Source: a virus (lineage: Duplodnaviria; Heunggongvirae; Uroviricota; Caudoviricetes). Taken from it: DNA of 51,917 nt. The stretch covers positions 65,670 through 117,586 of IMG/VR virus record IMGVR_UViG_3300044950_000141. One strand, written 5' to 3'. This document shows positions 17,346-35,407 of this stretch, one piece after another. Each line of letters begins with the position of its first letter. Position 1 is the first letter of the stretch. The translations under genes and the position numbers were made by a program. The notes beneath the pieces are model-generated. The model did no database searches, had not been told where the DNA came from, and was given only the letters and a program-made list of their open reading frames with translations.

Positions 17346-20300
17346 ATGAATATATCTTGCACAGAAGAAGTGTGTCCAATAATAATGAATGCTATTTGTG
17401 TATTCTATGAGGGTGCTGATTTAATATATACAGGGATTAATACTAATGATAATCTTCAAACTGCTCTAGAAAAAATAGATGCTAAGTTTGGTGATGCTTC
17501 TATTGGATATATATTTCAAAATGGTGTTATTCAAGCATCTCCAGGTGATCCTGTAAAACTAGGTGGTACATTAAATCAAAATACAGTTATTCTTAGTAGT
17601 GGATATACATTCACTATAACAGACTCTATTGAATCTGCTGCTTTGATAACAACAGGTGGAACATCCTCTGACTTTGTTAAAGGAGATGGCAGTCTTGACA
17701 GTGGCCCATATCAACCTGCAGGTAATTACATATCTTCTCTTTCAGGAGATGGTACTGCTACAGGTCCTGGAGCGTCTACACTAACACTAGCCACAGTAAA
17801 TACTAGTCCTGGTACATATGGATCTAGTACACTAGTTCCTAGGGTGACAGTTAATGGTAAAGGATTAGTGACAAACATCACTCCTGTTACAATAACTGTT
17901 CCTTCTGCTATTCTTATATTTGTAGGAGATGTGACAGGTGCTGGTATAACAGGATCTCCTACAACTCTTACATTACAGACAGTCAATCCTAATGTATATA
18001 GTTCTAATACATTTTTAAAGTTTGGTGTAAATGGAAAAGGTCTTGTAACATCTGCTGCTCCTATCACAGCATTAGATATAACTGGTGTATTAGGTTACAC
18101 TCCTGTACCCACTACAAGAACGCTTACAATTAATGGTTTAACACAAAACCTAGCATCTAATAGAACTTGGTCTGTAGGAACAGTGACAAGCGTAGGAATA
18201 TCTATGCCTTCTGGATTCACTGTAGGACCTCCTGTCACAAGTAGTGGAAACATTAATGTAACAGCTAATGGTACAATCGCTCAATATATAAGAGGTGATG
18301 GATCTATAGGTAGTTTTACAGCATCCACTTCAGGAAGTTCTGGAACATCAGGAACAGATGGTTCTTCTGGTACATCTGGAAGCTCTGGTTCAAGTGGTTC
18401 ATCAGCAACATCAGGTACATCTGCAAGCAGTGGTACTAGTGGTACAAATGGAACAAGTGGAAGCTCTGGTACGTCAGGCTCAAGTGGAACATCAGCAACA
18501 TCAGGCAGTTCAGGAACAGATGGCTCTAGTGGGTCAAGTGGTACATCAGGATCTTCAGGTAGTTCAGGTACATCTGCAAGCTCTGGTTCCTCTGGCTCTA
18601 GTGGAACCTCAGGTTCTTCTGGTTCTTCTGGATCTAGTGCAAGTTCAGGAACCTCTGGCAGCTCAGGTACAGATGGTTCTAGTGGCACTGATGGCTCAAG
18701 TGGTACGTCAGGAAGCTCAGGAACCACTGGTACAAGTGGTACATCAGGGAGTTCTGGTACATCTGGAAGTTCAGGTACAAGTGCTTCCTCAGGAAGTTCA
18801 GGAACAGATGGTTCAAGTGGAACATCTGCAAGCAGTGGAACTAGTGGAACTAGTGGATCTAGTGGTACGAGTGCAAGTTCTGGTTCTTCAGGAACTACTG
18901 GCACAAGTGGAACAGATGGGTCTAGTGGAACTTCAGCTTCTAGTGGGTCAAGTGGAACTAGTGCATCCTCTGGAACCAGTGCGTCATCTGGAACTAGTGG
19001 AACCTCTGGTACTAATGGAACATCAGGTAGTTCAGGAACATCAGCAACTAGTGGTTCATCAGGAACAAGTGCTTCTTCAGGACTATCAGGTGATAGATAT
19101 GCCACAACATCAACAACAACTTTTACTCTTGGTAATGCAGGAACAATAACTGTAGGTACTCAATTAGCATATACAGTGGCTCAATCAATCATTGTAGTGT
19201 ATGATGCTTTGAATTTCCAAGAGTGTGAAGTCTCATCATATAACCCAGCAACAGGCTCTCTATCTTTCTTAGCACCTACTAGAACAGTGGGTGGTGGTAC
19301 TTATTCATCATGGACAGTAAACTTAGATGGTGCTAGTGGAGGAGATGGAAGCTCTGGTACTTCTGGTTCAAGTGGAAGCTCAGCAAGTAGTGGTACAAGT
19401 GGTACGTCTGGAACAAATGGTACAAGTGGAAGCTCTGCAACAAGTGGGTCTTCAGGCACATCAGCTAGTTCTGGTACAAGTGCGTCATCAGGTACATCAG
19501 GAGTAAATGGTACTTCAGGAACTGATGGAAGCTCAGGTACTAGTGGTTCTAGTGGAACATCAGGAACCAATGGTACATCTGGTACTAATGGAACCTCTGG
19601 CTCATCAGGTACATCAGGAAGCAGTGGAAGCTCAGGAACTAGTGCGTCATCTGGTTCTAGTGGTACTAGTGCTTCAAGTGGATCTAGTGGTTCTAGTGGA
19701 AGTTCTGGTACCTCTGGCTCAAGTGGAACAAGTGGAACTAATGGAACATCAGCTTCAAGTGGATCTTCAGGAAGTTCAGGAACAAGTGGTAGCTCTGGAT
19801 CTAGTGGTACGAGTGCTTCATCAGGAAGCTCTGGTTCTAGTGGTACAACAGGAACTAGTGGATCAAGTGGAAGCAGTGGCACCTCTGGAAGTTCAGGTTC
19901 AAGTGGATCTAGTGGAACAAGTGCATCTAGTGGGTCAAGTGGTTCTACTGGAACTAGTGGAACAAGTGGTTCATCAGGAAGCAGTGGAACAAGTGGTAGT
20001 TCAGGAAGTAGTGGAACAGCAGGTTCAAGTGGTTCAAGTGGTGTAGGTGCTGTTATTGTGCTTGGAGCAGGAACATTATCATCTGTTAGATGTGGTGCGA
20101 GTAATAGTGCAACAGGTTCGTACACAGGTAACCTTGCAGGTTCAGGTAATACAATTGGTGGTTCTGCTTACAATACTATAATTGGTGGAGCTATCAATAC
20201 TGCTAGTGGAGCTTATTATGCTCATATAGGTAATGGTGCTAAACACACAGCTAGTGCAAATTTTTCTACTGTAAGTAATGGATATTGCAACATAGCAAGC

Positions 20301-23300
20301 GGTGGTTATTCTTTTATAGGTAGTGGTAATACAAATACAGCATCAGGAGATAAGTCGTTTATAGGTAATGGTCAATCTAATACTGCTTCAGGAGCTTGTT
20401 CAACTGTAGGAGGAGGTAGTAATAATTTAGCTTCAGGAATATTTTCAACTGTAGTAGGAGGTAGTAGTAACACTTCTAATAATACGAGAGCGTTTGTTGG
20501 AGGAGGTATTAGTAACACAGCATCAGCATACAATACAACAGTTGCAGGAGGATATGTTAACTCTGCCACTGTAGGTGGTGCAACAGTTGTGGGAGGTATA
20601 GGTAATACTGCATCAGGTGCTTGTAGCTTTGTAGGTGGAGGTTGTGCAAATTCAGCAACAAGCAATTTTACAACAGTAGGTGGTGGTGTTTGTAACACAG
20701 CAAGCAGTTATGCCAATACAATTGGTGGAGGATTTTATAATTATAGTGTTGGAAATTATAATACAATTTCAGCAGGTTATAAAAACTGTATTTTCTCAAC
20801 AGGCTCATTTATAGGTGGTGGTACTTGTAATTACATTTGTAATGGATTAGCTTTTTCTTGTACATCAAGTACTACAATTGCAGGTGGTGCAGGAAACAAT
20901 ACAAGTGGTGGTACATTTAATCCTACTAGTGGATATTTTAGTGTTGCTCCTACAGCTTTTTATGCAGCAGGACAATTTAGTTTTATAGGTGGAGGATTTC
21001 AGAATAGAGCAACAGGGACAAGTTCTGTTGTAGGAGGAGGTAAATCTAACACATCTTCAGGACTTTATTCAGTTGTTGGAGGAGGGTATCTGAACGTAGC
21101 AAATGGTGATACTTCTGCTGTATTAAGTGGACAACAAAATACATCATCATCTAATCAATCTGTAGTTGCAGGCGGTTATTTAAACACAGCTTCAGCATAT
21201 AGAGCAACTATTGCAGGTGGTCAGTCAAATACAGCATCAGGTAATTGTTCAACAGTTGGAGGAGGTCAAGCAAATCTTGCTTCAGTAGCTCATTCAACAG
21301 TGGCAGGAGGTATATCAAACATAGCTTCAGGGAACTGTTCATTTGTTGGTGGAGGATGTAGAAACTATTCAACAGGTGCTTGGTCTGCAATTGTAGGTGG
21401 CAGTGATAGCTGTGCCACAAGTACAAGAGCTTTTGTTGGTGGAGGTTATAATAATACTGCATCAAGCACATATTCAACAGTATCAGGTGGCTATGTAAAT
21501 GTAGCATCAGGTGGTCGTTCATTTGTAGGTGGAGGAACGAGTAACTTGGCATCAGGAGCAAATTCAACTGTGTCAGGTGGTATATCTAACACAGCTTCAG
21601 GTAACTGCTCTGTAGTTGCAGGGGGTAAAAATAATACAGCTTCTAATGCATATACATTTGTAGGTGGTGGTAATTTTACTATTGCTTGTGGAGTAAGTGC
21701 AACAGCAAGTGGCGGATATGCTTCACACGCTTATGGTAATTATTCAACAGTAGGTGGTGGATGTGGAAACAATGCTTTATCAGCTTGTTCAACTGTTGCA
21801 GGTGGTCGAGGTAATACAGCTAATTTTGCAGGTGCTGCAATAGTAGGAGGTCAATTAAATACAGCTTCTTATTATTTTTCTTTTGTAGGAGCAGGTAATT
21901 CTAATATAGCAAATAATTATGCAAGTGCTGTAGCAGGAGGTAGTAGTAATACAGCATCAGGTTATCGTTCATTTGTAGGGGCAGGTATAAGTAACACAGC
22001 TTCAGGTAATTGTTCTACAGTAGGTGGTGGTGAGAGTAATCAAGCATCAGGTGTATATTCAGCAACAGGGGGAGGAGTTCTTAATATTGCATCAGGAATT
22101 GATTCTGTGGTTGCAGGTGGGCGTTCAAATTCAGTATCAACACTTCGTTCTGCGGTAGGAGGAGGATTCCAAAACACAATTACCACAGGTGGCTATTCTA
22201 CTATTAGTGGCGGTTATGCTAATATTGCTTCAGGTGCAATATCATTTGTTGGTGGTGGATGTAGAAACTGTACAACATCAGCTTATTCTGTAGCTGTTGG
22301 AGGTAGAGCAAATACAGCAGCAGGAAGTGGTTATTCGTTTGTTGGTGGTGGTATAACAAATACAGCAAGTGGTTCATATTATTCTTTTGTGGGTGGTGGT
22401 TCTTCTAACACAGCTTCAGGAATAAGGTCAACTATTAGTGGTGGTGCAGGTAATACAGCATCAGGTGCAATATCATTTGTAGGAGGTGGTCAATCTAACG
22501 CAGCTTCAGGAGCTTGTTCTACTATTGGAGGAGGACAAGGTAATACAGCAACAGGTGCTAAATCATTTGTAGGAGGTGGATATAATAATACTGCTTCAAT
22601 TGCAAATGGAGTTGTAAGTGGTGGTTTAGGTAATACTGCATCAGGTTATTCAGGAACTGTAAGTGGTGGTTATCAAGGATTAAATAACCAAGCCTATGGA
22701 ACTTTAGGTGGTGGTACATTCAATAGTGTTTGCCATTCAGTTAGTGATATATGTGCATTAGGTGCAACAGTAGGTGGCGGTGTAGGTAGCAACTCTACAG
22801 GAGGAACATTTGTAAATGGATGGACAGTTAATCCAACAAGAGTAAACGCAGGTAGATATAGTACAGTAGCAGGTGGATTCCAAAATAAAGCAACAAGCAC
22901 AAGTGCTACAATTGGTGGTGGTTATCAAAACACTGCAAGTAATAGTTATTCTACTGCATCAGGTGGTTATAGAAATACAGCATCAGGAGTAGTATCAACA
23001 ATATCAGGTGGTTCAAATAATTTTGTATCATCAAATTATTCCACTGTAGGTGGAGGTACTTCTAACTGTATAACAGCAGGAAGAAACCACGTAATTGGCG
23101 GTGGTGAAACAAACACTATTAGTGCTAACTATTTTGGTACAGTTGGTGGTGGTGTATCTAATACAGCGTCAGGTTATAAATCTACAGTGGGAGGTGGCAG
23201 AACAAATGTTGCTTCAGCAGAATATTCAACAGCATCAGGAGGGCAAAGCAACACAGCTTCAGGGGTAGGTACATTTGTAGGGAGTGGATTAGGAAATACA

Positions 23301-25241
23301 GCAAATGGTACTCGTTCAGCTGTTGTAGGTGGTTCATCAAATGCAGCATCAGGTGTATGTAGCTTTGTAGGAAGTGGTCAAGGTAACAATTCATTAGCAA
23401 ATGCTTCGTTTATTGGTGGTGGTCAAGCTAATACTGCAAATGCAAACCAATCAACTGTAGTAGGAGGATATGGAAATACAGCTTCAGGTTATCGTTCATT
23501 TGTTGGTGGAGGTATATCAAATACATCTTCAGCATATAGAACAACAGTTTCAGGAGGTGATAGTAATGGTGCAACAGCAAACTATGCTACAGTAGGGGGT
23601 GGTATATCTAATACAGCTAGTTCTACTAATGCATTTGTAGGAGGTGGACAAGCAAACATATCTTCTAACGGAAGTACAACAGTTGCAGGTGGGACAAGTA
23701 ACACAGCTTCAGGATTAAGAGCTACAGTAGGAGGTGGCGATACTAATACAGCTTCAGGTGGACAATCAACAGTAAGTGGTGGTAACACTAACATAGCTTC
23801 AGGTGCTTGTTCATTTGTAGGTGGTGGAACAGGAAATAATGCAGTTAGTTTAGGTTCTTTTGTAGGCGGTGGAAGTATCAATACAGCTTGTGGTCCATAT
23901 AAAGCAGCAGTAGTGGGTGGAGGAAGTAACACTGCTTCAGGATATTATTCATTTATTGGAGCAGGATATGCAAACTGCATTTGCAACGTTTATTCAGGAA
24001 CAATATCAGGAGGTTATCAGAATACAATTTCAGCAGGTTGTCATGGATTTATTGGTGGTGGTAGACAAAACGTAGTTGCAGGTGTTCACGCAGGTGTAGT
24101 GTCAGGTATTTTAAACACAGCTTCAGGCAGTTGTTCATTTGTGGGTGGTGGTAGACTTCATACTGCTGCTGCGGGATTTTCAACTGTATCAGGAGGTTAT
24201 TGTCATACATCAAGTGGATATGGTTCAACAGTTGGTGGTGGCTATAGAAACACTGCAAACAATACCTATTCAACAGTAGCAGGGGGAAGCGGTCAATTAG
24301 CAACAGGAGCTAGATCTGTATTAGGAGGTGGAAGTGATAATATTGCTTCAGGAACTTATGCGTCAGTAATAGGAGGTATTTCAAATACAGCATCAGGACT
24401 TTGTTCAACCGTTGGGGGTGGTCAAGGTAATGTTGCATCAGGATGTTGGAACTTTGTAGGTGGTGGCCTTAGCAATACAGCAAGTGGTCTTTATTATGCA
24501 AGTGTAGTCGGTGGTGTTGGAAACATTGCTTGTTGTTCTTATTCAGCAATTGGTGGAGGATATTATAACTGTACAGGGTTTGTAGCTTCTGTAGGTGGAG
24601 GAGATGGTAACAAAGCTATGGGTAACTATTCAGCTATTGCTGGTGGATATTGTAACTGTGCTTCAGGCGCTTGTTCGTTCATTGGTGGTGGTGGTTCTTT
24701 TGGCGCAGGGGGTAATGTTGCATCAGGAGCTTGGTCAGCTATTTTAGGCGGTTTAAGTAATACAGCATCAGGTGCATTTTCAGGAGCATTTGGTTGTGGG
24801 TTAGCAGCTTCAGCAGCTTGTACATTCTATTCAAACAACTTCTGTGCAACTTCTTGTATAAATGCAGCAAGCAGGGGTACTTTTCTTGGAGCTGTTGACA
24901 ATGCTTTATTTAGTTTAAATAGTGGAGGTACATTGTACACAGTTGGATTTAGTCCAACAGCAAGTGCAAGTAGTACAAATACTTTTACATTAACAAATGG
25001 TACAACTACTTGGATTTACACTGGTAGTGGTGCGGCAACTTGGACACTTCCTAATCCTAGCGGTAATAACCAAATATATTGGATTAAAAACGCTGGCACT
25101 GGTGCAATAACTTTAAATGCTTTTAGTGGTACTAATATAATAAATAATAGTGCGACATCAGTAGGTAGTATTTCAATAGCGGTTGGTGCAACAGCAGTAA
25201 TCGCCCAAGACGGAAACGTAAAATCTTATCAATTACAATAA
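17346..25241 (+). CDS. Giant tail/head fibre or adhesin: N-terminal anchor, two Ser/Thr Gly-X-Y blocks, ~100 15-aa beta-solenoid repeats, C-terminal tip
   Basis: 2631 aa. SSG/TSG/TDG triplets followed by [T/F]VGGGxxNxASGxxS repeats. It lies downstream of the ejection genes. Confidence 0.8.
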   Translation: MNISCTEEVCPIIMNAICVFYEGADLIYTGINTNDNLQTALEKIDAKFGDASIGYIFQNGVIQASPGDPVKLGGTLNQNTVILSSGYTFTITDSIESAALITTGGTSSDFVKGDGSLDSGPYQPAGNYISSLSGDGTATGPGASTLTLATVNTSPGTYGSSTLVPRVTVNGKGLVTNITPVTITVPSAILIFVGDVTGAGITGSPTTLTLQTVNPNVYSSNTFLKFGVNGKGLVTSAAPITALDITGVLGYTPVPTTRTLTINGLTQNLASNRTWSVGTVTSVGISMPSGFTVGPPVTSSGNINVTANGTIAQYIRGDGSIGSFTASTSGSSGTSGTDGSSGTSGSSGSSGSSATSGTSASSGTSGTNGTSGSSGTSGSSGTSATSGSSGTDGSSGSSGTSGSSGSSGTSASSGSSGSSGTSGSSGSSGSSASSGTSGSSGTDGSSGTDGSSGTSGSSGTTGTSGTSGSSGTSGSSGTSASSGSSGTDGSSGTSASSGTSGTSGSSGTSASSGSSGTTGTSGTDGSSGTSASSGSSGTSASSGTSASSGTSGTSGTNGTSGSSGTSATSGSSGTSASSGLSGDRYATTSTTTFTLGNAGTITVGTQLAYTVAQSIIVVYDALNFQECEVSSYNPATGSLSFLAPTRTVGGGTYSSWTVNLDGASGGDGSSGTSGSSGSSASSGTSGTSGTNGTSGSSATSGSSGTSASSGTSASSGTSGVNGTSGTDGSSGTSGSSGTSGTNGTSGTNGTSGSSGTSGSSGSSGTSASSGSSGTSASSGSSGSSGSSGTSGSSGTSGTNGTSASSGSSGSSGTSGSSGSSGTSASSGSSGSSGTTGTSGSSGSSGTSGSSGSSGSSGTSASSGSSGSTGTSGTSGSSGSSGTSGSSGSSGTAGSSGSSGVGAVIVLGAGTLSSVRCGASNSATGSYTGNLAGSGNTIGGSAYNTIIGGAINTASGAYYAHIGNGAKHTASANFSTVSNGYCNIASGGYSFIGSGNTNTASGDKSFIGNGQSNTASGACSTVGGGSNNLASGIFSTVVGGSSNTSNNTRAFVGGGISNTASAYNTTVAGGYVNSATVGGATVVGGIGNTASGACSFVGGGCANSATSNFTTVGGGVCNTASSYANTIGGGFYNYSVGNYNTISAGYKNCIFSTGSFIGGGTCNYICNGLAFSCTSSTTIAGGAGNNTSGGTFNPTSGYFSVAPTAFYAAGQFSFIGGGFQNRATGTSSVVGGGKSNTSSGLYSVVGGGYLNVANGDTSAVLSGQQNTSSSNQSVVAGGYLNTASAYRATIAGGQSNTASGNCSTVGGGQANLASVAHSTVAGGISNIASGNCSFVGGGCRNYSTGAWSAIVGGSDSCATSTRAFVGGGYNNTASSTYSTVSGGYVNVASGGRSFVGGGTSNLASGANSTVSGGISNTASGNCSVVAGGKNNTASNAYTFVGGGNFTIACGVSATASGGYASHAYGNYSTVGGGCGNNALSACSTVAGGRGNTANFAGAAIVGGQLNTASYYFSFVGAGNSNIANNYASAVAGGSSNTASGYRSFVGAGISNTASGNCSTVGGGESNQASGVYSATGGGVLNIASGIDSVVAGGRSNSVSTLRSAVGGGFQNTITTGGYSTISGGYANIASGAISFVGGGCRNCTTSAYSVAVGGRANTAAGSGYSFVGGGITNTASGSYYSFVGGGSSNTASGIRSTISGGAGNTASGAISFVGGGQSNAASGACSTIGGGQGNTATGAKSFVGGGYNNTASIANGVVSGGLGNTASGYSGTVSGGYQGLNNQAYGTLGGGTFNSVCHSVSDICALGATVGGGVGSNSTGGTFVNGWTVNPTRVNAGRYSTVAGGFQNKATSTSATIGGGYQNTASNSYSTASGGYRNTASGVVSTISGGSNNFVSSNYSTVGGGTSNCITAGRNHVIGGGETNTISANYFGTVGGGVSNTASGYKSTVGGGRTNVASAEYSTASGGQSNTASGVGTFVGSGLGNTANGTRSAVVGGSSNAASGVCSFVGSGQGNNSLANASFIGGGQANTANANQSTVVGGYGNTASGYRSFVGGGISNTSSAYRTTVSGGDSNGATANYATVGGGISNTASSTNAFVGGGQANISSNGSTTVAGGTSNTASGLRATVGGGDTNTASGGQSTVSGGNTNIASGACSFVGGGTGNNAVSLGSFVGGGSINTACGPYKAAVVGGGSNTASGYYSFIGAGYANCICNVYSGTISGGYQNTISAGCHGFIGGGRQNVVAGVHAGVVSGILNTASGSCSFVGGGRLHTAAAGFSTVSGGYCHTSSGYGSTVGGGYRNTANNTYSTVAGGSGQLATGARSVLGGGSDNIASGTYASVIGGISNTASGLCSTVGGGQGNVASGCWNFVGGGLSNTASGLYYASVVGGVGNIACCSYSAIGGGYYNCTGFVASVGGGDGNKAMGNYSAIAGGYCNCASGACSFIGGGGSFGAGGNVASGAWSAILGGLSNTASGAFSGAFGCGLAASAACTFYSNNFCATSCINAASRGTFLGAVDNALFSLNSGGTLYTVGFSPTASASSTNTFTLTNGTTTWIYTGSGAATWTLPNPSGNNQIYWIKNAGTGAITLNAFSGTNIINNSATSVGSISIAVGATAVIAQDGNVKSYQLQ
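18327..19092 (+). repeat. Gly-X-Y (Ser/Thr) 9-nt period repeat block 1
   Basis: Roughly 85 triplets TSG/SSG/TDG/TNG, with occasional Ala in place of Gly. Confidence 0.9.
19340..20043 (+). repeat. Gly-X-Y (Ser/Thr) 9-nt period repeat block 2
   Basis: Roughly 78 triplets, separated from block 1 by an ~80 aa globular spacer (DRYATTS...WTVNLDG). Confidence 0.9.
20130..24800 (+). repeat. 15-residue (45-nt) degenerate tandem repeat array
   Basis: Consecutive units such as TVGGGSNNLASGIFS / TVVGGSSNTSNNTRA / FVGGGISNTASAYNT. Confidence 0.9.
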
Positions 25242-25242
25242 T

Positions 25243-25563
25243 ATGAAAACAATAACCCCACAACCAATTTGGATTGACGGTATGTCAAAATTAGCAACTG
25301 TAATATATTCGCAAGTTAATAGCGATAATATGAAAGACACTGCAACTTTCTATTTTCAATTATATGAACAAGTTGAACATAACATAATGCCATTAGTTAA
25401 TGGTAAAATTGATATGACTGGTGCTAATTATATTACCTATAATAGTGCAACTGATGCTAACGCTTATGCTTGGCAGTGGATTGCAACTACATTAGGTTTA
25501 ACAATTACTGGCGAATATATCCCTCCACCAACACCAGCAGAATTAAAACAAGGAGTTTCTTAA
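25243..25563 (+). CDS. Putative fibre assembly/chaperone or tip-associated protein
   Basis: 106 aa, starts 1 nt after the fibre stop. The function is inferred from position only. Confidence 0.5.
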   Translation: MKTITPQPIWIDGMSKLATVIYSQVNSDNMKDTATFYFQLYEQVEHNIMPLVNGKIDMTGANYITYNSATDANAYAWQWIATTLGLTITGEYIPPPTPAELKQGVS

Positions 25564-25605: not shown

Positions 25606-25929
25606 ATGGCAAACTTATGGAACACAATCCACATCTTTGGATTTGGAACAGTTCAGGCAATATCTGACACACAAAATGTACAAGCACCAATAGCTGCTTT
25701 CCAAGCAGAAGTGGATGCTGTGGTAGATGATGTATGGGCAGGCAAACCAGCAGATTACACAGGTCCAAAGACCTATCATGCTATTAACAACTTCAACACT
25801 TTGTTTAGTGACTGGTTACCTAATAGCCCAGACGCACAATCATTTAGAGTGGAAGCTGCTAATCTTGATCAAACTTTATTGGACACTTTGGCAGCATCTG
25901 TATTAGCATATGTTCCCCCTACAAATTAA
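25606..25929 (+). CDS. Hypothetical protein (possibly virion-associated)
   Basis: 107 aa ORF with an A-rich start context (aattATGG). Confidence 0.7.
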   Translation: MANLWNTIHIFGFGTVQAISDTQNVQAPIAAFQAEVDAVVDDVWAGKPADYTGPKTYHAINNFNTLFSDWLPNSPDAQSFRVEAANLDQTLLDTLAASVLAYVPPTN

Positions 25930-25958
25930 ATTAATTTTTTAATTTAATTAATTATTCA

Positions 25959-25966
25959 TAACTTTG
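25959..25966 (+). promoter_or_regulatory. Candidate -7 element (TAACTTTG) for the GT9/sulfotransferase operon
   Basis: TAnnTTTG overlaps the TTG that the ORF track took as start, which favours ATG 25982. Confidence 0.5.
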
Positions 25967-25981
25967 AGCAAAACTCATAGT

Positions 25982-26851
25982 ATGAATATAATATTCCAAA
26001 TCAATGGTGGTATTGGCAAAGTTATTGCTAGTACTGCCATTTGTGCTTCTATAAAGGCACAGTATCCTGACGCTAAACTTATTGTTGTTAGTGGTTATCC
26101 AGATGTATTTTTAGGTAATAAGAATGTTGATAGAGCATATGTCTTTGGTCAACAAGCTTATTTTTATAAGGAATACATTGAGAATCAAGAAGTTATAGTG
26201 TTTGGACATGATCCTTACTTAGAGGCAAAGCATATTAAGCAAGAAGAACACCTTATTGAAACATGGTGTAAATTGTATGGTTTACCAGTTACAAAAACTG
26301 CTGGAGAGTTATTTCTAACACAAAGAGAAATAGATTTCTTTAGTCAAAAGTTTGTATCTGATAAGCCTATTTTTTTGATGCAAACTAATGGTGGTGCTGA
26401 ATCTGATATCAAATACTCATGGGCTAGAGATATTCCTAGCTATGTTGTAGAGAATGTCATCCATGAATTTAGAGAGCAATATAACATTGTACATATAAGA
26501 AGAGATGACCAAATTAAATATGATGGAACGTTTGGTGTATCAGATACATTCAGATCTTTGCTTGTTCTTGTAGGTATAAGTGAGAAAAGATTATTTATGG
26601 ATAGCTTTGCACAACATGCTGCAGCTGCTTTAAATAAACCATCCACTGTATTATGGGTTGTAAATAGTCCTAAAGTATTTGGTTATAACATACACAGTAA
26701 TATCACAGCTAATCCAGAAACCACTACACCAGAATTGCGTAATGCATATCTTGGGAAATACAATATTGCAGGTGATCCTCTTGAGTTTCCTTACAACAAT
26801 GAGTCTGAAATATTTAATGTAGATGCTGTTATTAAATCTTTAAAATCTTAA
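25982..26851 (+). CDS. Glycosyltransferase family 9-like (heptosyltransferase-like, GT-B)
   Basis: N-terminal NGGIGKVIAST..IKAQYPDAKL and C-terminal DSFAQHAAAALNKPSTVLW resemble GT9 motifs. Confidence 0.75.
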   Translation: MNIIFQINGGIGKVIASTAICASIKAQYPDAKLIVVSGYPDVFLGNKNVDRAYVFGQQAYFYKEYIENQEVIVFGHDPYLEAKHIKQEEHLIETWCKLYGLPVTKTAGELFLTQREIDFFSQKFVSDKPIFLMQTNGGAESDIKYSWARDIPSYVVENVIHEFREQYNIVHIRRDDQIKYDGTFGVSDTFRSLLVLVGISEKRLFMDSFAQHAAAALNKPSTVLWVVNSPKVFGYNIHSNITANPETTTPELRNAYLGKYNIAGDPLEFPYNNESEIFNVDAVIKSLKS

Positions 26852-26852
26852 T

Positions 26853-27671
26853 ATGGAAAAGATATTCTATCAAAGTTCTTTACCAAGAGCAGGTTCAACA
26901 TTGTTACAAAACATATTAGCACAAAACTCAGACATCTATGCTACACCAACTAGTGGTGTTCTTGAGTTAGTGTTTGCAGCTAGAGGAAACTATACAGATA
27001 GTCCTGAGTTCCAAGCTCAAGATCCTGAGATAATGAAGACAGCATTCCAAGCTTTCTGTAGATTTGGTATGGAGGCTTATTACAATGCTATTACAAATAA
27101 GAAATACATTGTAGATAAATCTAGAGGATGGGGAATACATTATGACTTCCTAAACTTTGTTCACCCAGAGCCAAAGATTATATGCATGGTGAGAGACTTA
27201 AGAGATGTATTTGCATCAATGGAAAACAACTATAGAAAGAATCCTGACAAAGCAAATGCCATCCTTAATTGGGCACAGATGCAAGGCACAACAGTTCCAA
27301 AGCGTGTAGACATTTGGGCACAGGGTCAACCTGTAGGACTTGCTATTGAAAGGTTGCAAGAGTTGTTTAGATTAGGCATAGACAAGCATGTTTTATTTGT
27401 AAAGTTTGAAGACTTATGTTTATATCCTGATAGCACAATGGTAAAAATATACGAGTATTTAGGCATACCATATTACCAACATGATTGGGATAACATAGAG
27501 CAAGTAACTAAAGAAGATGATGAAGTGTATGGAAGCTTTGGTGACCATGTAATTCGTACAAAACTTGAACCTGTAAGAAGTAAAGCAAAAGAACTATTAG
27601 GTAAAGATGTTACAGATTGGATTTGGAATAATTATGAATGGTTTTTTAAACAATTTAGATATACAAAATGA
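26853..27671 (+). CDS. PAPS-dependent sulfotransferase
   Basis: 5'-PSB loop SLPRAGSTLL and 3'-PB motif RDLRDVFAS. Confidence 0.85.
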   Translation: MEKIFYQSSLPRAGSTLLQNILAQNSDIYATPTSGVLELVFAARGNYTDSPEFQAQDPEIMKTAFQAFCRFGMEAYYNAITNKKYIVDKSRGWGIHYDFLNFVHPEPKIICMVRDLRDVFASMENNYRKNPDKANAILNWAQMQGTTVPKRVDIWAQGQPVGLAIERLQELFRLGIDKHVLFVKFEDLCLYPDSTMVKIYEYLGIPYYQHDWDNIEQVTKEDDEVYGSFGDHVIRTKLEPVRSKAKELLGKDVTDWIWNNYEWFFKQFRYTK

Positions 27672-28105
27672 TAATAGTTATTTTTGGACAGCCTGCATCA
27701 GGCAAGACAACCCTAGCTAAAAAGTTTATAGAAGAGGGATTCCACCACATAGATGGTGATGAACTAAGAGAGACATTTAAGAACAGTGATTATAGCAGAG
27801 AAGGTAGAATTAAAAATCTAAATAGAGCTAGTGACATAGCTCATTACTTAGATAAGATAAAAGGCTATAATGTAGTGCTTTCATTAGTATATCCTTATGA
27901 AGAAGCTAGACAATACTTTATTAAATTAAACAGAAGTGTTAAATGGATATATCTTATATATCAAGAAGATAGAGGTAGAGATGAATTTAAAGTGGCAGAC
28001 TTTGAGCTTCCACATATGGATAATGTAGAGTTAATTTTAAATACTTCAGTTGATTCAATAGATGTATGTACTGATAAAATTAAAAATGTATGCAGAATAT
28101 TTTAA
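27668..28105 (+). CDS. cysC: Adenylyl-sulfate (APS) kinase, compact
   Basis: P-loop GQPASGKTT, then DGDELR and YSREGRIKN, typical of CysC. Overlaps the sulfotransferase stop (ATGA). Confidence 0.75.
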   Translation: MIIVIFGQPASGKTTLAKKFIEEGFHHIDGDELRETFKNSDYSREGRIKNLNRASDIAHYLDKIKGYNVVLSLVYPYEEARQYFIKLNRSVKWIYLIYQEDRGRDEFKVADFELPHMDNVELILNTSVDSIDVCTDKIKNVCRIF

Positions 28106-28476
28106 CTGAAGGCAATCGTAAGACAGATGGTTATGCTATGTTCATTGGAAGATGGCAACCATGGCACGCTGGACACAGGTGGTTAATTGATCAACAATTG
28201 AACCAGGGAAAGAAGGTGTTACTGTGTATAAGAGATGTTAAGCAGGATGAAAAGAACCCATGGTCTGCTTGGCAGATAATGATGAATCTATCAGAAGAAC
28301 TAATAGATCTTATAGAAGATAACAAAGTGAGACTTATGATTATCCCTGATATTGAGTCTATTAACTTTGGTAGAGGGGTAGGATATGATGTTGTTGAACA
28401 CGTTCCACCACAAGAGATACATGACATCTCAGCTACTCAAATTAGAGAACAAATGAAAGCAGAAGGTAAGTTATGA
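28090..28476 (+). CDS. HxGH class I nucleotidyltransferase (cytidylyltransferase-like); candidate minimal sulfate adenylyltransferase
   Basis: FIGRWQPWHAGH and C-terminal ISATQIRE motifs. Confidence 0.75.
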   Translation: MQNILTEGNRKTDGYAMFIGRWQPWHAGHRWLIDQQLNQGKKVLLCIRDVKQDEKNPWSAWQIMMNLSEELIDLIEDNKVRLMIIPDIESINFGRGVGYDVVEHVPPQEIHDISATQIREQMKAEGKL

Positions 28477-28682
28477 TAGTAGAACGTAAAAGACACATAG
28501 CTAAGACAATCAGTTATAGATTGATAAGCACCCTTATAGGATTTGCTGCAATGCTTGTTGTTACAGGCTCTGTAAAAGCAGGAGCAGCGTTTGGTATAGC
28601 TGAATTACTTTGGAAACCAATACAATATTATTTCCATGAACGTATATGGTATAGATGGATTAAGTATGGACTAAAGCCTTAA
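28473..28682 (+). CDS. DUF2061-like small membrane protein
   Basis: RHIAKTISYRLIST...YYFHERIW pattern with two hydrophobic segments. Confidence 0.75.
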   Translation: MIVERKRHIAKTISYRLISTLIGFAAMLVVTGSVKAGAAFGIAELLWKPIQYYFHERIWYRWIKYGLKP

Positions 28683-29763
28683 CTGCCATAGCAACATCAT
28701 TAACAGAAATACTCTTATGACATTCAAACTGTCTAGGAGTATTTTCATTTTCAGGACACCAGTTCCAATCTCCTTTGTTAAACTTGAACATAGGATTATT
28801 CCAACATCCATTACACACTTCTTTATTAGTTATACGTGTACAATCTTCTTGAAACTCATGGTCTTCTGTAGTGAAGTTAGAGATCATTACAGTGTGCTTA
28901 CATATAGCCCAGTTCAACCAACTGATACCACTAGACAGTCCTATGAACAAATCTGCATGATGTAGATAGTTCATAACGTTCTGTAAACTAGTATCGTCTA
29001 GTTTCTCTGCACCATAGTCATCAGCTTCTTGAGACATCTCAAACACTCTGTATCCCCAGCTTTTTAGTTGCTGAATTAACTCTGGCCAGTAGTACCAATG
29101 TTTACACTGTGCTGTAGATTTTGTAGATATACATATGTATTCATTCACTACAGGTCTTTCTTCTAGTGTAAATGCTATTCTAGGATGTATCTCTTTAAAT
29201 GGTAGGGCTAATATGTTACTTGCTGATTGTTGTAATGGTATAGTGGCAGGATGTGTAGGTTCTTTTTCCTTATCCCAAAACCAACCTAGTTCAACCCTAG
29301 CTTTGATATTCTGTACTATTGTTCCTCTACCTGAAAACTCTAGTTCAGGATATGCACTCTCAAACAAGTCATTCTTGAATGTAGACACAATCACTTTACA
29401 TTTATAAACTTCCTGAAATTGTAAACAGTATGGTATCCAAGCTATGCTATCACCAAGACTCTTAGACTCAAATACAATAAACACCCTCTCACCTTTAAAC
29501 TCATCTAGTAAGTTCACTTGTTTAATTGTACGTCCTTCATACTTAATGAATATAGCTATATCAGATATATACTTTCTACTAAGTCTAGCCCACGCACCTG
29601 GCTTTAGTTTTGTTTCATAGATAGTTACATGTTGATCTGTAAGCATGCCTTCCACCTTACCCTTTCTATCTACAAACTGTATATCATATTCTCTGTTCTT
29701 ACCACCATCCTCTATTAGTTCAAAGAACAAACCATCAACATGGTTTAATTTATATGTTATCAT
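28660..29763 (-). CDS. TibC/Aah-like (autotransporter O-heptosyltransferase family) glycosyltransferase
   Basis: SLGDSIAWIPYCLQFQEVYKCK plus the C-terminal four-Cys motif CNGCWN..WCP..RQFEC of bacterial autotransporter heptosyltransferases. Confidence 0.75.
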   Translation of the reverse strand: MITYKLNHVDGLFFELIEDGGKNREYDIQFVDRKGKVEGMLTDQHVTIYETKLKPGAWARLSRKYISDIAIFIKYEGRTIKQVNLLDEFKGERVFIVFESKSLGDSIAWIPYCLQFQEVYKCKVIVSTFKNDLFESAYPELEFSGRGTIVQNIKARVELGWFWDKEKEPTHPATIPLQQSASNILALPFKEIHPRIAFTLEERPVVNEYICISTKSTAQCKHWYYWPELIQQLKSWGYRVFEMSQEADDYGAEKLDDTSLQNVMNYLHHADLFIGLSSGISWLNWAICKHTVMISNFTTEDHEFQEDCTRITNKEVCNGCWNNPMFKFNKGDWNWCPENENTPRQFECHKSISVNDVAMAVKALVHT

Positions 29764-30763
29764 ATGCGTTTATATATAATTGTTTTGTCTTTTCTGATGT
29801 ATATCCTTCATTGATCTTCAACACATTTTCATAGTATTTATGTAATGTCTTAGCTACATTGTCCCAGCTATAACTATTACGTACAGTTAGCATCTCTTGT
29901 CTTCTATGTTCATATGTCTTAATTGTCTCTGTAATGCCATGCATTACACTCTCTGTGCTAATGTTTGGTAACACCCACATACCAGGGAAGTGTTTAGATC
30001 CTCTATAAGTTCCTACAATAGGAATACATACACTAGCTGCTTCACATAATGTTAGATTGGGATGTCCTGCTTCTAGCATAGATGGATGTAAGAAGATGCT
30101 ATGATCCTGATACAGTTCTTTCATTTCTTCATCTGTAGGATTTGTTAACTTTAAAGTTAACTTTTTATAATTCAATAACTCTATATGGATATCAAAGAAC
30201 TTCTGATTGTCAGTATGTCCAGCAATAGTGATAGGTAGATCTAATTCTCTAGCTGCTTCTATACCATATCTAAATCCTTTTCTATCAAACCCTGAGTCAC
30301 CTGCTAATCCATTGTTAGCTATCATCAATAGTTTATGTGGACCCATTCTATAGTCTGGTGTAAAGAATTCTGTGTTAGCCCCATGTCTTAGATAGAACAA
30401 CTTATCAGTCTCACTGAAGTAGTCTATTAGATACTCAGCATGTGTAAAAGATATAATGCTATTCTTCATAGCCTCTAGATTTTGCTTATACACCCAGCTA
30501 TCTTTACCATACCATTCTGTATGATGATCATGTAGAGAGTATACATAAGGTATACCTTTGTCTCTACAATACAAAGCCTGGTTAGCTAGATGTGTATGTA
30601 CAATTGTATCTGGCCATTTCTCTAGCTCATTCATATATTTGATGTCTACAACATCTCCTAGCTTTTCAAGGGATTGTTTATATTCCCATGTAAGTCTTTC
30701 TACAGCTCCCCATCCATTTGGTGGTATAGTTATAAGCCCTGTAGCTACGTGTACTATTCTCAT
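29750..30763 (-). CDS. Glycosyltransferase family 4 (GT-B)
   Basis: IPPNGWGAVE N-terminal motif and FLHPSMLEAGHPNLTLCEA (E-x7-E-like). Confidence 0.8.
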   Translation of the reverse strand: MRIVHVATGLITIPPNGWGAVERLTWEYKQSLEKLGDVVDIKYMNELEKWPDTIVHTHLANQALYCRDKGIPYVYSLHDHHTEWYGKDSWVYKQNLEAMKNSIISFTHAEYLIDYFSETDKLFYLRHGANTEFFTPDYRMGPHKLLMIANNGLAGDSGFDRKGFRYGIEAARELDLPITIAGHTDNQKFFDIHIELLNYKKLTLKLTNPTDEEMKELYQDHSIFLHPSMLEAGHPNLTLCEAASVCIPIVGTYRGSKHFPGMWVLPNISTESVMHGITETIKTYEHRRQEMLTVRNSYSWDNVAKTLHKYYENVLKINEGYTSEKTKQLYINAYDNI

Positions 30764-33414
30764 TTTCTAAATGTTTTTTGCATGTTGTCTATTAAGGAAA
30801 ATCCATCTGCTTGTGTGGTAAGTCTCTTCTTCACAATACCCATTCTATCTCCTGCAAAGATATTATTAAAATACATATCAGCAGCATCCCACTTGTGCAT
30901 TCTTAAAGTTTCTTTTAACCATGGAGCTACATGTGCAGGGAACATGATACATTGTAAACCTATAATATGATTTGTAACATACATGTCATTGTTCACTTCT
31001 TTGACAACAGGACTTTGTGGCCAGCCATATTCTAATGTATCTTTATCTCCAAAGGACATGTATTCTATTCCATTCTCTATAAGCTTAGTTGCACACTCTT
31101 CTACAGTCTTAATGAACTCTTCAATAGGTGCCTCAATGATACAATCACCTTCACACACTATCAAGTAGTCACAGTTATTGAATTCACTCAAGATAGCATT
31201 CTTGAATGCTTCATAGCATCCATAATGTGCTGGGGTAAGTGCAGTGCCATGTTGTTGAACTTGTTGTTCATTGAAGAGTTCCATTGAAACACAACTGGGT
31301 CTGAGACAGTTATATGATGGTGGTAATGATTTATAGGGCTCGTTAATGTGTAACTTATATTCCCATCCATGGTTGATAACTTCAATAAGGGAGTCTCTGC
31401 TAGCTTTTTCTCTTTCATCATTTAATGTGGTTTGTATGTGAACTAATTTAATCTTTGGTCTATCTTTCTTCTTCCATTCAAATTTACCAGTTTTCTGATA
31501 TTTATGAATAGTATCTGCATTCATTTCAAACTTTTCTTTCTTATATATTCTATCTCCATCATAACATGACATTTCTATTACATTATTTCCTGTGTATTCA
31601 AACTCATGTTTAAATTCTCTTGTTGTAGAAATATCTATCTTCATCATATATTCTCCAATCTTAACCCAAAATATTCTATCATCTACATTATATGTAAAGA
31701 AATAGAACATATACCAATCAGGCTTTCCAGTAACAGGAAGTATAGAATAATACTCGCTATTAGATGCAACACCTAATCCACTGTGTATCAACAATGTTTG
31801 ATCAGCATTAGTAACTAATTGTATATCATTTGGATTGAAACTAAATACCACCTTAGCTAAATAGTCTTCTAGATAGTTCTCACACTTTCTTCTCTTACAT
31901 ACAGCATCCCATTCATCAGGTGTACGTACATCATCAAATTCTTTTACAAAGAAGTCTACATCAAACATCATTCCATTGGTTTGAATTCCTTTTCCTTGAG
32001 ATGTATTAACTATACCTAAATAAGCTTTCTTGTCTGTATTAAAGGATTCATTAATAACACCTAAGTCTTTCTCATTTACAACTACATCATATGTGTTATA
32101 GAATGCACGTTTGTATCCTAGATCTTGAGCAGCTTTGAATCCATTATATAAGTTAGTAAGTACAGTGAGAGACTGATTACTATATTTCAATCCATTGATA
32201 TTCACCTCAGCATAATAGTCATCTGTATGTCTATAGAATCTGCTGTAATAAGAATGATGTGTTAATGGATTATGTGCATCGTACACATAGTGATCCACCA
32301 TACGTTGTATCTCCTCGTCCACAGGATAGTGACTGATTAACATGATGTTTCTACCTAAGGCTTTCATAGAGTTGATAGTATCCTTAGTTAATTGTGCACG
32401 AGATTTTAAATTAGGATAGGTGCCTATGATGATAAGTTCTTCATCTTTCTTATCAAGGTTTAATTTTTTGATGATATTAGTAGCATCACTACCAATATCT
32501 CCAGTTAAATAAACCATATTCTCTGCATCATTATACTTGTTACAATATACATCTAGGTTGTACATTACTTTGATCAAGTCATCATATTCCATAGCTTCTT
32601 TAATAGCAATAGGATTTAACTCCTTGTTACCTCTGTCTCCTTTAGATGGGAAGAAGAATACATCAGAAGCTTCTAAGAACATGTCTACATCATCTCGCTC
32701 ACCCCACACAACACAGTTGTCTGGTTTGTTAGCCATCAAGGGCTTCCAATATGATTCAAAGTTACCAGCTTGGTTACCTAGGAAATGAAACTTAACCTTG
32801 TAGTTCTTAAGTCTTTCTGCTAGTTGGAATGCATAAGCTTGATTCTTTCTAGGTGTAAACAACCCTACAGTTACAAAGTGTTTATAGTCATGCTCTAATC
32901 CTAACTTTTCTCTTATAGCATACTGGTTTCTTTCTTTCTTGTTTACAGGATACTCAATCACTTCTGTAGGTACATTTAATGTAATGTATTGAAATGAATT
33001 ATATGAGCTAACAAATATAAACTTGTCAGGCAAATAGTATTTGTTTTTAGGATTGAATGAACTATCATGTGTAGTTTCTACAATCTTCCATGGCTTCTCT
33101 GCATCGTATAGATAGTCAGCACATTCTTCATTCATAAACATCTCTGGAAACTCTTCCATAGAGATTACATCTGGTTTGAACTCTTGCAGAACTTGCAACA
33201 GTTCATCATATTTATTCTCTCCTAGTGAATGGAAGTTCTGATCTCCCACTAGTTTAATTATTCTATTTCTTTGCACAACAAACTGCCATGCTAGGAATGC
33301 ATACTCTACCACCTTGATATCAAAGTCATTCTGTAGTAGTTCTACTTTGTTTACTGTTACCTGGGGTGCTCCTCCTGTTGATAGATGAGGAGTGATGATT
33401 AATAGTTTCTTCAT
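30760..33414 (-). CDS. Multidomain glycosyltransferase (N-terminal GT4, central unknown domain, C-terminal GT-A/GT25-like)
   Basis: ITPHLSTGGAPQ, VGLFTPRKNQ and SDVFFFPS..ELNPIAIKEA; C-terminal HYGCYEAF..LIVCEGDC. Confidence 0.75.
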   Translation of the reverse strand: MKKLLIITPHLSTGGAPQVTVNKVELLQNDFDIKVVEYAFLAWQFVVQRNRIIKLVGDQNFHSLGENKYDELLQVLQEFKPDVISMEEFPEMFMNEECADYLYDAEKPWKIVETTHDSSFNPKNKYYLPDKFIFVSSYNSFQYITLNVPTEVIEYPVNKKERNQYAIREKLGLEHDYKHFVTVGLFTPRKNQAYAFQLAERLKNYKVKFHFLGNQAGNFESYWKPLMANKPDNCVVWGERDDVDMFLEASDVFFFPSKGDRGNKELNPIAIKEAMEYDDLIKVMYNLDVYCNKYNDAENMVYLTGDIGSDATNIIKKLNLDKKDEELIIIGTYPNLKSRAQLTKDTINSMKALGRNIMLISHYPVDEEIQRMVDHYVYDAHNPLTHHSYYSRFYRHTDDYYAEVNINGLKYSNQSLTVLTNLYNGFKAAQDLGYKRAFYNTYDVVVNEKDLGVINESFNTDKKAYLGIVNTSQGKGIQTNGMMFDVDFFVKEFDDVRTPDEWDAVCKRRKCENYLEDYLAKVVFSFNPNDIQLVTNADQTLLIHSGLGVASNSEYYSILPVTGKPDWYMFYFFTYNVDDRIFWVKIGEYMMKIDISTTREFKHEFEYTGNNVIEMSCYDGDRIYKKEKFEMNADTIHKYQKTGKFEWKKKDRPKIKLVHIQTTLNDEREKASRDSLIEVINHGWEYKLHINEPYKSLPPSYNCLRPSCVSMELFNEQQVQQHGTALTPAHYGCYEAFKNAILSEFNNCDYLIVCEGDCIIEAPIEEFIKTVEECATKLIENGIEYMSFGDKDTLEYGWPQSPVVKEVNNDMYVTNHIIGLQCIMFPAHVAPWLKETLRMHKWDAADMYFNNIFAGDRMGIVKKRLTTQADGFSLIDNMQKTFRK

Positions 33415-34340
33415 ATGTTATTGTTAATTGCGTGAATCACCTGCTCTACAGATGGATGACACTCATAAGCTTCTTTCTTCTCTAAGCATCCAATCAGTGG
33501 CTGTACAGAGTCTATTGTAGGCCAATACTCAAGAGCATATTTCATATTGGATGAACAGTGTAATCCACATGCTCCTCTTACGTATATATGTTTGCTAGTC
33601 TTTCTACGTGGTCTACGAAACTCTGGGTTGATAGGAGATCCTAATTCAATTATAGGTGTTTCTGTTGTACCTGCTAAATGTAGGATACCTGAGTCCATTG
33701 TAATTACAACTGCAGCATCGTTAATCAGATGCCAGCTCTCAGAGATAGATGTTTGATTCATTAGATTGATAACATTTTGATTATCAATATCATGTACAGG
33801 TTTGTTTACATTAAAGAATCCTGTCTCAGAACTATCCTTACCTATAGCCACCACTTTGTATCCCCACTTCACTAACTCTTCAGATAGCTTTAGCCAGTTC
33901 TCTTGTGACCATGTTCTATTAGGCCAGCTGTTAACAGGATGTATTACAGCATACTTCTCATGTACAAAGTTCTTCTTAGGTTCTGTAGGTTTGTAATAAC
34001 ATTCTAGTTCATCTTCTCCAAGCATAAAGCCTAGGTGTATGGCATGAAACTGTCTGATGTCCATCATGTTATGCTTCATCTCCACACCACGCTCGTCCTT
34101 CTTACCTACTAGATAGAATGAATTATGTACAATGTAATTACTTTGTATGTACGTCATGTCTATAGAACTAGCTTTATAGCTCTTCTCTACATAGGGATTC
34201 GTTTTAAATAGCTCAGGCATCTGAGAGATGACAGTAATCTTTCTTTGATATGCATCATGTAGTTTCTTAATGGTGGGGGTGGCACATATCAGGTCTCCCA
34301 AACCATTACATTCTTCTAAGTTTAAGCAAACTGGTTTCAT
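33411..34340 (-). CDS. Glycosyltransferase family 9-like with C-terminal Cys cluster
   Basis: GLGDLICATPTIKKL, DSGILHLAG and CGLHC..C..EC. Confidence 0.8.
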   Translation of the reverse strand: MKPVCLNLEECNGLGDLICATPTIKKLHDAYQRKITVISQMPELFKTNPYVEKSYKASSIDMTYIQSNYIVHNSFYLVGKKDERGVEMKHNMMDIRQFHAIHLGFMLGEDELECYYKPTEPKKNFVHEKYAVIHPVNSWPNRTWSQENWLKLSEELVKWGYKVVAIGKDSSETGFFNVNKPVHDIDNQNVINLMNQTSISESWHLINDAAVVITMDSGILHLAGTTETPIIELGSPINPEFRRPRRKTSKHIYVRGACGLHCSSNMKYALEYWPTIDSVQPLIGCLEKKEAYECHPSVEQVIHAINNNI

Positions 34341-34981
34341 TGTATTGACATTAAAAAATCAGGAGTTGTATAGTCTCTTTTAACTGTTGTATATCCTAGT
34401 CTAGCTAAGAAATTTACAGCTGTACTTGTATTGTCCTCTAACCATATTAGAGGCTTATCTCTTTGTATTAATTTTATCATTCCTTCAAAAGCAGACATCT
34501 CATGACCCTCAATATCTATCTTGATAAACTTAACAGGCTCATCAAACCATACATCATCTAGAGCTAAGACAATGTTCTTATGTGCTCCATTAGGTACAAT
34601 CTTTACCACACCACTGTTGGAACCATGTCCATCATCAAATGAAACAATAGATGTTCTACTACCCACTCCTACATTTATTGCAGATACATCCTTGTATCTT
34701 TTTGTGTTTTGCTTTAGAACAGAATAGTTATCTGGATGTGGTTCAAATGCTATAATCTTTAAGTTAGGGAAGTGGTGTTTAAATTGTACACAATGTCCTC
34801 CTATATTAGCCCCAATATCTAACATTAGTCCTGTAGAAGGGAAATGTTCTTTCCAATCATTAAATAACTGAAATTCCCAGAAATCATTGTATTTAACTAT
34901 GTCATCTGAGATACATTCAGGACTCTCAAATATAACCATAGGTGTATTGTGAATACTTACTATCCTAGTTTCTCGTTTCAT
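34337..34981 (-). CDS. FkbM-family SAM-dependent methyltransferase
   Basis: LDIGANIGGH, FEPHP and IKIDIEGHE. Confidence 0.9.
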   Translation of the reverse strand: MKRETRIVSIHNTPMVIFESPECISDDIVKYNDFWEFQLFNDWKEHFPSTGLMLDIGANIGGHCVQFKHHFPNLKIIAFEPHPDNYSVLKQNTKRYKDVSAINVGVGSRTSIVSFDDGHGSNSGVVKIVPNGAHKNIVLALDDVWFDEPVKFIKIDIEGHEMSAFEGMIKLIQRDKPLIWLEDNTSTAVNFLARLGYTTVKRDYTTPDFLMSIQ

Positions 34982-34984
34982 TTG

Positions 34985-35014
34985 TTGGTTATTTCCACAA
35001 ATATACTATCTTTG
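34985..35014 (+). promoter_or_regulatory. Promoter for the DUF6165-like gene
   Basis: TTG (34985-87) N19 TATCTTTG (35007-14). Confidence 0.7.
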
Positions 35015-35028
35015 CTCAAAATAACAAA
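34998..35028 (-). promoter_or_regulatory. Promoter for the minus-strand glycosyltransferase operon
   Basis: On the minus strand, TTTG (35028-35025) N19 TATATTTG (35005-34998). Confidence 0.7.
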
Positions 35029-35038
35029 ACGTTTTGCT

Positions 35039-35407
35039 ATGAAAATTGAAGTTTCTGTAGGAGAAGTAGTAGATAAATGGACTATACTTTCCATCAAAGC
35101 CCTGAACATTACAGACAAAGACAAACTAGTTAATGTTTTCAAAGAAAGAAATTATCTGAATGATGCTGTACATCCTGAGATCTTACATGACCCTATGACT
35201 GATGAACTTCTTAAGGTGAACCAGTTTCTTTGGAAGGTGGAAGATCTTCTAAGAGACTTTGAAAGAGCTAGTAGCTTTGGAGAAGAGTTTGTTGACTTAG
35301 CTAGATCTGTCTACAAATTAAATGATCAAAGAGCACATATTAAAAAAGAAATTAATATTAAGTATGGCTCTGACTTTGTAGAGGAAAAGTCCTACCAGCC
35401 CTACTAA
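35039..35407 (+). CDS. DUF6165-like helical protein
   Basis: MKIEVSVGEVVDKWTILSIK...LWKVEDLLR...LARSVYKLNDQRAHIKKEIN...EEKSY. The start is reassigned to ATG 35039, downstream of the promoter. Confidence 0.75.
   Translation: MKIEVSVGEVVDKWTILSIKALNITDKDKLVNVFKERNYLNDAVHPEILHDPMTDELLKVNQFLWKVEDLLRDFERASSFGEEFVDLARSVYKLNDQRAHIKKEINIKYGSDFVEEKSYQPY

Follow-up and report, generated by a model that had tools for sequence, protein, structure and literature searches.

To our knowledge, only two families of ATP sulfurylase are recognised, Sat and CysDN, and their product, adenosine 5'-phosphosulfate (APS), is the one metabolite common to APS kinase and APS reductase. Adenylyl transfer is the established chemistry of the HxGH nucleotidyltransferase superfamily, and in the bifunctional 3'-phosphoadenosine 5'-phosphosulfate (PAPS) synthases (human PAPSS, Aquifex Sat-CysC) an HxxH transferase is fused to, or paired with, an APS kinase. 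The synthesis of APS is endergonic, and is pulled by APS kinase and pyrophosphatase (PMC3734648). In viruses, cysC, the APS kinase gene, has been widely described as auxiliary metabolic (PMC13584214, for example), in passages that treat it as sulfate-reduction metabolism and mention no transferase partner. Here we consider a stretch of 51,917 nucleotides (the window), the final 52 kb of the 117,586-bp virus record IMGVR_UViG_3300044950_000141, in which five coupled open reading frames at 25982-28682 form a cassette with genes for a GT9-like protein, a sulfotransferase, an APS kinase, a 128-aa HxGH nucleotidyltransferase and a DUF2061 protein. The cassette is best explained as a module for the supply and use of PAPS, and the genomic context makes it likely that the 128-aa protein has ATP sulfurylase activity.

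The idea that this small protein supplies the adjoining kinase with APS was already put forward in the initial annotation of the window, and it is now supported by four kinds of observation: fusions of the two genes in both orders, loci where the transferase gene takes the position of CysD, CysQ genes as neighbours, and a distribution complementary to that of Sat and CysD. The absence of sat and cysDN, noted at the same time for the window, extends to the whole 117,586-bp genome (CheckV completeness 100%), in which no match to PF01747 (Sat) or PF01507 (CysD/PAPS reductase) was found. Conservation of the neighbourhood in other phages, which had been suggested as a check, was observed: as counted with hidden Markov models, 81 of the 82 viral loci of the transferase gene contain an APS kinase, as do 71 of the 80 cellular ones (152/162 combined). 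PF01583 also occurs in most of 107 longer homologues, and the cellular fusions (14 kinase-first, 7 transferase-first) recall the PAPS synthases, where fusions are likewise known in both orders, but they are much smaller (about 245-330 aa against about 550-620). Some of the partner kinases are full-length CysC proteins above the NCBIfam cut-offs (L145, L137, L160), and CysQ and sulfotransferase genes neighbour the transferase gene in L145 and L147. PHROG 10255 (phrog_10255, labelled 'kinase'), genes of cultured Xylella, Xanthomonas and Stenotrophomonas phages, and gene 35 of Xylella phage Sano (Sano_35) are all kinase-transferase fusions, which the phrog_10255 and Sano_35 records call hypothetical, kinase or cytidyltransferase-like.

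The arrangement varies among these loci. In Sano (L081:6555-8324), a weak sulfotransferase-like gene and a 147-aa gene precede the fusion, and in three other phages (L022:3518-5962, L037:889-3333, L046:3699-5971) kinase and transferase are set apart by some 2.3-2.4 kb of inserted sequence. Three Marinoscillum loci (L102, L104, L107, around 5550-6333) have a transferase gene that is preceded by a 138-aa gene, and the nearest 6 kb contain no APS kinase. A Marinimicrobia single-cell genome (L116:6001-6772) shows two convergent transferase copies, possibly an assembly artefact. In marine group III archaea (L120, L125, 1-7600) the pair sits between metK/ahcY-type and glyA-like genes, a methionine/one-carbon context judged by eye except for metK, which was identified by Pfam.

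A further indication of the product comes from loci without a kinase. Four Nitrospirales genomes have a sulfite reductase gene followed by that of APS reductase (above the TIGR02055 cut-off) and then by the transferase gene, with no kinase nearby, and in 24 of 26 other loci from the order Nitrospirales CysD is found at that position or one gene further, the remaining two ending too early for CysD to be judged. The transferase gene is absent from all 26 of these sister loci; CysD has been confirmed in two of them, and in L230 a CysN-type GTPase follows. The presence of the transferase beside APS reductase, in the position of CysD, points to APS synthesis. With CysDN the family thus has in common this operon position and the proposed product, but the catalytic subunits are unrelated (the HxGH protein does not match PF01507) and there is no GTPase partner. 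The four carriers gave no CysD match and hold a Sat-APS kinase fusion elsewhere, whose Sat sites are decayed in three of them, all Nitrospiraceae, with QTRH or QTQS, and GWDY, EPNY or GQDY, replacing QTRN/VGRDHAG (L170, L180, L181; G032, G038, G030). These Nitrospirales counts probably reflect a single lineage. There is a precedent for an inactive Sat domain fused to APS kinase in Thiobacillus denitrificans, according to a title cited in PMC3734648.

The distribution of the gene leads in the same direction, 36 of 50 cellular carriers having no Sat or CysD match. In the class of G012 (Marinimicrobia; 151 genomes, 104 of them APS-kinase-positive), 92 of the kinase-positive genomes have Sat/CysD without the transferase gene, 9 have the transferase without Sat/CysD, one has both transferase and Sat, and two have neither, so that 9 of the 11 kinase-positive genomes without Sat and CysD carry the transferase. 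Fisher's test on this table gives P 2e-10, which is not an independent-sample probability; because the nine carriers probably share a single lineage, and the majority of the genomes are incomplete, we count them as one strong case and not as nine. In each of the single-contig chromosomes G012 and G031 the one APS kinase adjoins the transferase, and neither Sat nor CysD is matched. Carrier genomes also have NadD- or NadM-type genes, recognised by motif, that are separate from the transferase gene. In the SAR11 family the transferase occurs in 29 of 61 sampled genomes, in 17 of them visibly beside a short APS kinase that overlaps it (L203:1486-2267; genomes G195-G254), and four genomes with kinase frames of 614-617 aa (CysNC by size only) have no transferase. 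SAR11 has been described as lacking cysDN and sat, with cysC and cysQ in most listed strains, and AprBA is a possible second source of APS there (PMC5069961).

The 128-aa protein has the HxGH and SxT-x-x-R motifs and the Rossmann-like fold of class I nucleotidyltransferases (model confidence, as predicted local distance difference test score (pLDDT), 94). Its family is large (among candidates of similar length 6301 proteins reach E <= 0.001, and 449 representatives reach E <= 1e-10), and its gene is under purifying selection (ratio of nonsynonymous to synonymous substitution rates, dN/dS, 0.05-0.10). The conserved residues among 142 homologues are R21, H26, H29, R48, G94-R95-x-V-G98-Y99 and S114-x-T116-x-I-R119; H26 is found in 142/142, H29 in 141/142, S114 and R119 in 140/142, and R48 and R95 are nearly invariant. 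Database names for the homologues (JGI) include nicotinamide mononucleotide (NMN) adenylyltransferase and cytidyltransferase-like, and a Foldseek search with the model returned no match at E <= 0.001. One homologue (P0126) carries an FeS assembly (PF01883) domain as a fusion partner.

With NadM (M. jannaschii MJ0541, 1f9a; M. thermautotrophicus, 1ej2) the protein shares GRxQPxHxGH, the NPF/W loop, SxT-x-x-R and the Rossmann core, and the two folds agree well in the VIA comparison (Z 10.1, root-mean-square deviation (rmsd) 2.8 over 112 residues; hhalign 98.7%), followed by phosphopantetheine adenylyltransferase (Z 9.8). Compared with true NadM, however, hhalign reveals deletions of 17 and 8 residues (about 25 in total), which remove the NMN-binding helix that stacks nicotinamide in 1ej2. 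The C-terminal helices are also missing, GSA is replaced by RD and SGN by FGR, the genomic context is one of sulfur genes, and the scores are far below the curated NadM cut-offs (34 against 127 bits, 30 against 181 bits). With Sat (T. thermophilus 1v47, yeast Met3; PF01747) there are in common the HxxH superfamily fold (Z 7.7, rmsd 3.5 over 115 residues), the HxxH motif itself (H26-A-G-H29), a Gly-Arg that ends the same strand (FGRGVG and VGRDHAG, by eye), ISAT corresponding to ISGT, and the proposed reaction. Unlike Sat, the protein has no N-terminal domain, is about one third as long, and is aligned by hhalign at the C-terminal motif only. The possible counterpart of the VGRDHAG loop, which hhalign leaves unaligned, is the conserved G94-R95-G-V-G98-Y99, without the Asp-His of Sat (Asp in 17/142 homologues, His in none). 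The best PF01747 score of any family member is E 2.3e-5.

The proposal that the protein is a miniature Sat by descent must therefore be abandoned, NadM scoring higher by sequence, profile and fold, and this closeness to NadM argues for a separate recruitment. The family tree is poorly resolved, with NadM as a long branch, and assigns no origin or donor. As far as can be read from its residues, the protein looks like a NadM-type core minus the NMN-binding helix, plus the conserved R48 and R95, which could hold sulfate, and these features would suit an adenylyltransferase whose acceptor is small and anionic. Belonging neither to Sat nor to NadM, the family should be regarded as an unplaced HxGH family and as a candidate third ATP sulfurylase.

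The kinase of the cassette is well modelled (pLDDT 95), with the APS kinase of A. fulgidus (7yq1, E 2.6e-9) as best fold match. It keeps the P-loop, D29-G-D31, R34, Y42, R47 and N50, and among its homologues K13, D29, D31, R34 and R47 are invariant and Y42 nearly so. The lid is about 19-24 residues shorter than in CysC, with its Arg (R102) retained; a shortened lid also distinguishes the phage kinase from that of the PAPS synthases. It scores 32.8 bits against TIGR00455, below the cut-off of 138.7, and its best NCBIfam match is PRK05541 (1e-11, below cut-off), which we take to be the Cj1415-type model. The two arginines that bind phosphosulfate in M. tuberculosis CysC, and the first of the stacking aromatics described there (PMC4373884), are all present.

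The sulfotransferase and APS kinase assignments of the initial annotation are both well supported, by Pfam (PF13469 1.5e-20; PF01583 1.1e-8), motifs and fold. The sulfotransferase scores 74.8 bits against PF13469 (cut-off 27), and its 5'-PSB motif PRAGSTLL and 3'-PB motif MVRDLRD..AS are invariant among 16 homologues. The same scan detects PF01467 at cut-off in the HxGH protein and PF09834 (1.3e-14) in the DUF2061 protein. The GT9-like call, in contrast, survives as a remote resemblance of moderate to weak strength: the protein resembles RfaQ (E 0.009), hhalign aligns it over 192 columns with the GT9 gene at 33411-34340 (probability 81%), and 15% of its Atlas cluster has PF01075, but neither it nor any of 16 homologues matches Pfam, and a search of the alignment against PDB gave no match. 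The product is thus a weak candidate for a GT9-like (GT-B type) glycosyltransferase.

In the pathway that we envisage, the 128-aa enzyme would form APS by joining the AMP moiety of ATP to sulfate, as its context suggests, and the overlapping kinase would phosphorylate APS to PAPS and, together with a host pyrophosphatase, pull the unfavourable first step. The sulfotransferase would then move the sulfuryl group to an acceptor, perhaps most likely the sugar that the GT9-like enzyme would attach, and this sugar may sit on the Ser/Thr-rich fibre or on another virion protein. To call the cassette self-contained, as was done at first, was an overstatement, no gene for a CysQ-type phosphatase or a sugar epimerase having been found in the phage genome.

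Several observations weigh against this pathway and should be stated openly. In both sequence (1f9a, E 2e-11) and fold the 128-aa protein is closest to NMN adenylyltransferases; QxRN, the motif by which Sat binds phosphosulfate/sulfate (PMC6607087), is absent, with IGRWQPWH at that place, and the PF01747 score is 11.7 bits against a gathering cut-off of 24.3. The kinase is without the lid Lys (RDPK) and the second stacking Phe (FTG) of CysC, one of the four Nitrospirales carriers (G295, L237) retains intact Sat motifs, 14 of the 50 cellular carriers also hold a Sat or CysD match, and some complete or large phages that carry the pair have weak or no sulfotransferase matches. The missing QxRN and the shortened lid, with the PRK05541 match of the kinase, could be explained if the pair activated a substrate other than sulfate, as in Campylobacter Cj1415-Cj1418: a nucleotide adduct (a phosphoramidate or phosphonate, for example) would be 3'-phosphorylated by the CysC-like kinase and transferred by an enzyme of sulfotransferase fold, the Cj1415-type pathway yielding CDP-phosphoramidate 3'-phosphate (PMC11800397). 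We nevertheless find this unlikely, given that orthologues without a kinase stand beside APS reductase and sulfite reductase in the CysD position, that others stand beside CysQ or are fused to full-length CysC, and that the kinase retains both phosphosulfate-binding arginines. The resemblance to NadM (including GRxQPxHxGH), the JGI names and a neighbourhood rich in glycosyltransferases would suit an adenylyl- or cytidylyltransferase of NMN, nicotinic acid mononucleotide or sugar phosphates, PAPS then coming from the Sat or CysDN of the host. This is slightly harder still to accept: the scores far under the NadM cut-offs, the lost NMN-binding helix and the separate NadD/NadM-type genes of carriers speak against it, and it does not account for the linkage to APS kinase or to APS reductase. 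The very small size of the protein, the missing Sat motifs and the genomes that have it together with an intact Sat or CysD might also suggest a partner of APS kinase that is not catalytic or serves in recycling, and so binds or stabilises APS or works only in reverse; we consider this the most improbable of these alternatives, as the HxGH and SxT-x-x-R residues are nearly invariant and the protein is found next to APS reductase, with no kinase, where another source of APS looks absent or decayed.

Less certainty attaches to the acceptor. If PAPS is made as proposed, the sulfate could go to protein tyrosines, the host surface or some other molecule instead of a virion glycan, a possibility that deserves serious attention even if we hold it at somewhat below even. 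Indeed, the nearest solved structure to the sulfotransferase is a tyrosylprotein sulfotransferase (human TPST1, E 8e-10), and many phages carry the pair beside genes for a DNA methylase or for DNA metabolism, and have no glycosyltransferase close by. The TPST match is weak, however, and mainly limited to the PAPS-binding core, the GT9-like gene adjoins the sulfotransferase gene in 17 of 21 viral loci that carry this sulfotransferase family, and the same gene set is found next to a fibre-like gene in an unrelated contig of 328 kb, which also has genes for sheath and terminase. The fibre itself contains collagen-type repeats and is composed of 20% Ser and 12% Thr, Ser and Thr together reaching 58% within residues 330-900; a fibre homologue is present in 11 of 82 related viral loci. 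A virion glycan as the sulfate acceptor, suggested by these gene arrangements, is in our opinion evenly balanced between right and wrong.

A broader proposition, to which we would give an even chance, is that this family of 110-130 residues is a third, independently recruited ATP sulfurylase. On this view it takes over from CysDN or Sat in certain Nitrospirales, Marinimicrobia and marine archaea and, besides its presence in about half of the SAR11 genomes, enables phages to sulfate their virion glycans. We found no paper that describes the family as an ATP sulfurylase, in a literature coverage that leaves out most subscription journals, so that novelty is unproven. If true, a third family would alter genome-based calls of which organisms activate sulfate, those for SAR11 among them; orphan viral cysC would be part of a PAPS donor module and not a boost to host sulfate reduction, and sulfated phage coats would be suggested. 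A PAPS synthase of about 250 residues might also be useful for engineered sulfation.

The coordinates of the cassette and its surroundings are collected in Table 1. The five coupled genes have been confirmed as first described, all on the + strand, with a 1-nt gap followed by overlaps of 4, 16 and 4 nt. They do not follow directly on the fibre gene, as had been thought, two small genes (25243-25563 and 25606-25929) lying in between.

Table 1. Genes of the cassette and neighbouring features (positions in the window)
Feature	Position	Strand	Description
GT9-like gene	25982..26851	+	289 aa; ATG start; program's TTG start at 25964
Sulfotransferase gene	26853..27671	+	272 aa; PAPS-dependent; PF13469
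APS kinase gene	27668..28105	+	145 aa; short-lid; PF01583
HxGH nucleotidyltransferase gene	28090..28476	+	128 aa; NadM-like; candidate minimal ATP sulfurylase
DUF2061 gene	28473..28682	+	69 aa; small membrane protein; PF09834
Fibre gene	17346..25241	+	2631 aa; Ser/Gly/Thr-rich; candidate carrier of sulfated glycan
Convergent glycosylation operon	28660..34981	-	Aah/TibC-type heptosyltransferase, two GT4-type enzymes, GT9, FkbM methyltransferase

The phage is crAss-like in appearance, with terminase, portal and capsid genes (PHROGs) and giant proteins; the cassette has been recovered in many lake-water metagenomes, among them some not flagged as a potential origin of the record, and RNA runs cover next to none of the stretch. 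Directly 5' of the cassette, 25930-25981 is a very AT-rich gap with a stretch that looks self-complementary, possibly a terminator or promoter. The convergent operon matches TIGR04414 (235 bits, cut-off 200), PF00534, PF01075 and TIGR01444, and its Aah/TibC-type gene is overlapped by the DUF2061 gene over 23 nt. Of the 82 viral loci, 38 have DUF2061 along with the kinase-transferase pair; here DUF2061 and DUF6165 (34949-35407) flank the glycosylation block at its edges. Finally, within 28660-33414, the Aah/TibC-type heptosyltransferase and part of an 884-aa glycosyltransferase are united in related phages (e.g. L001:2085-5582) as a single protein of some 1140-1180 aa.

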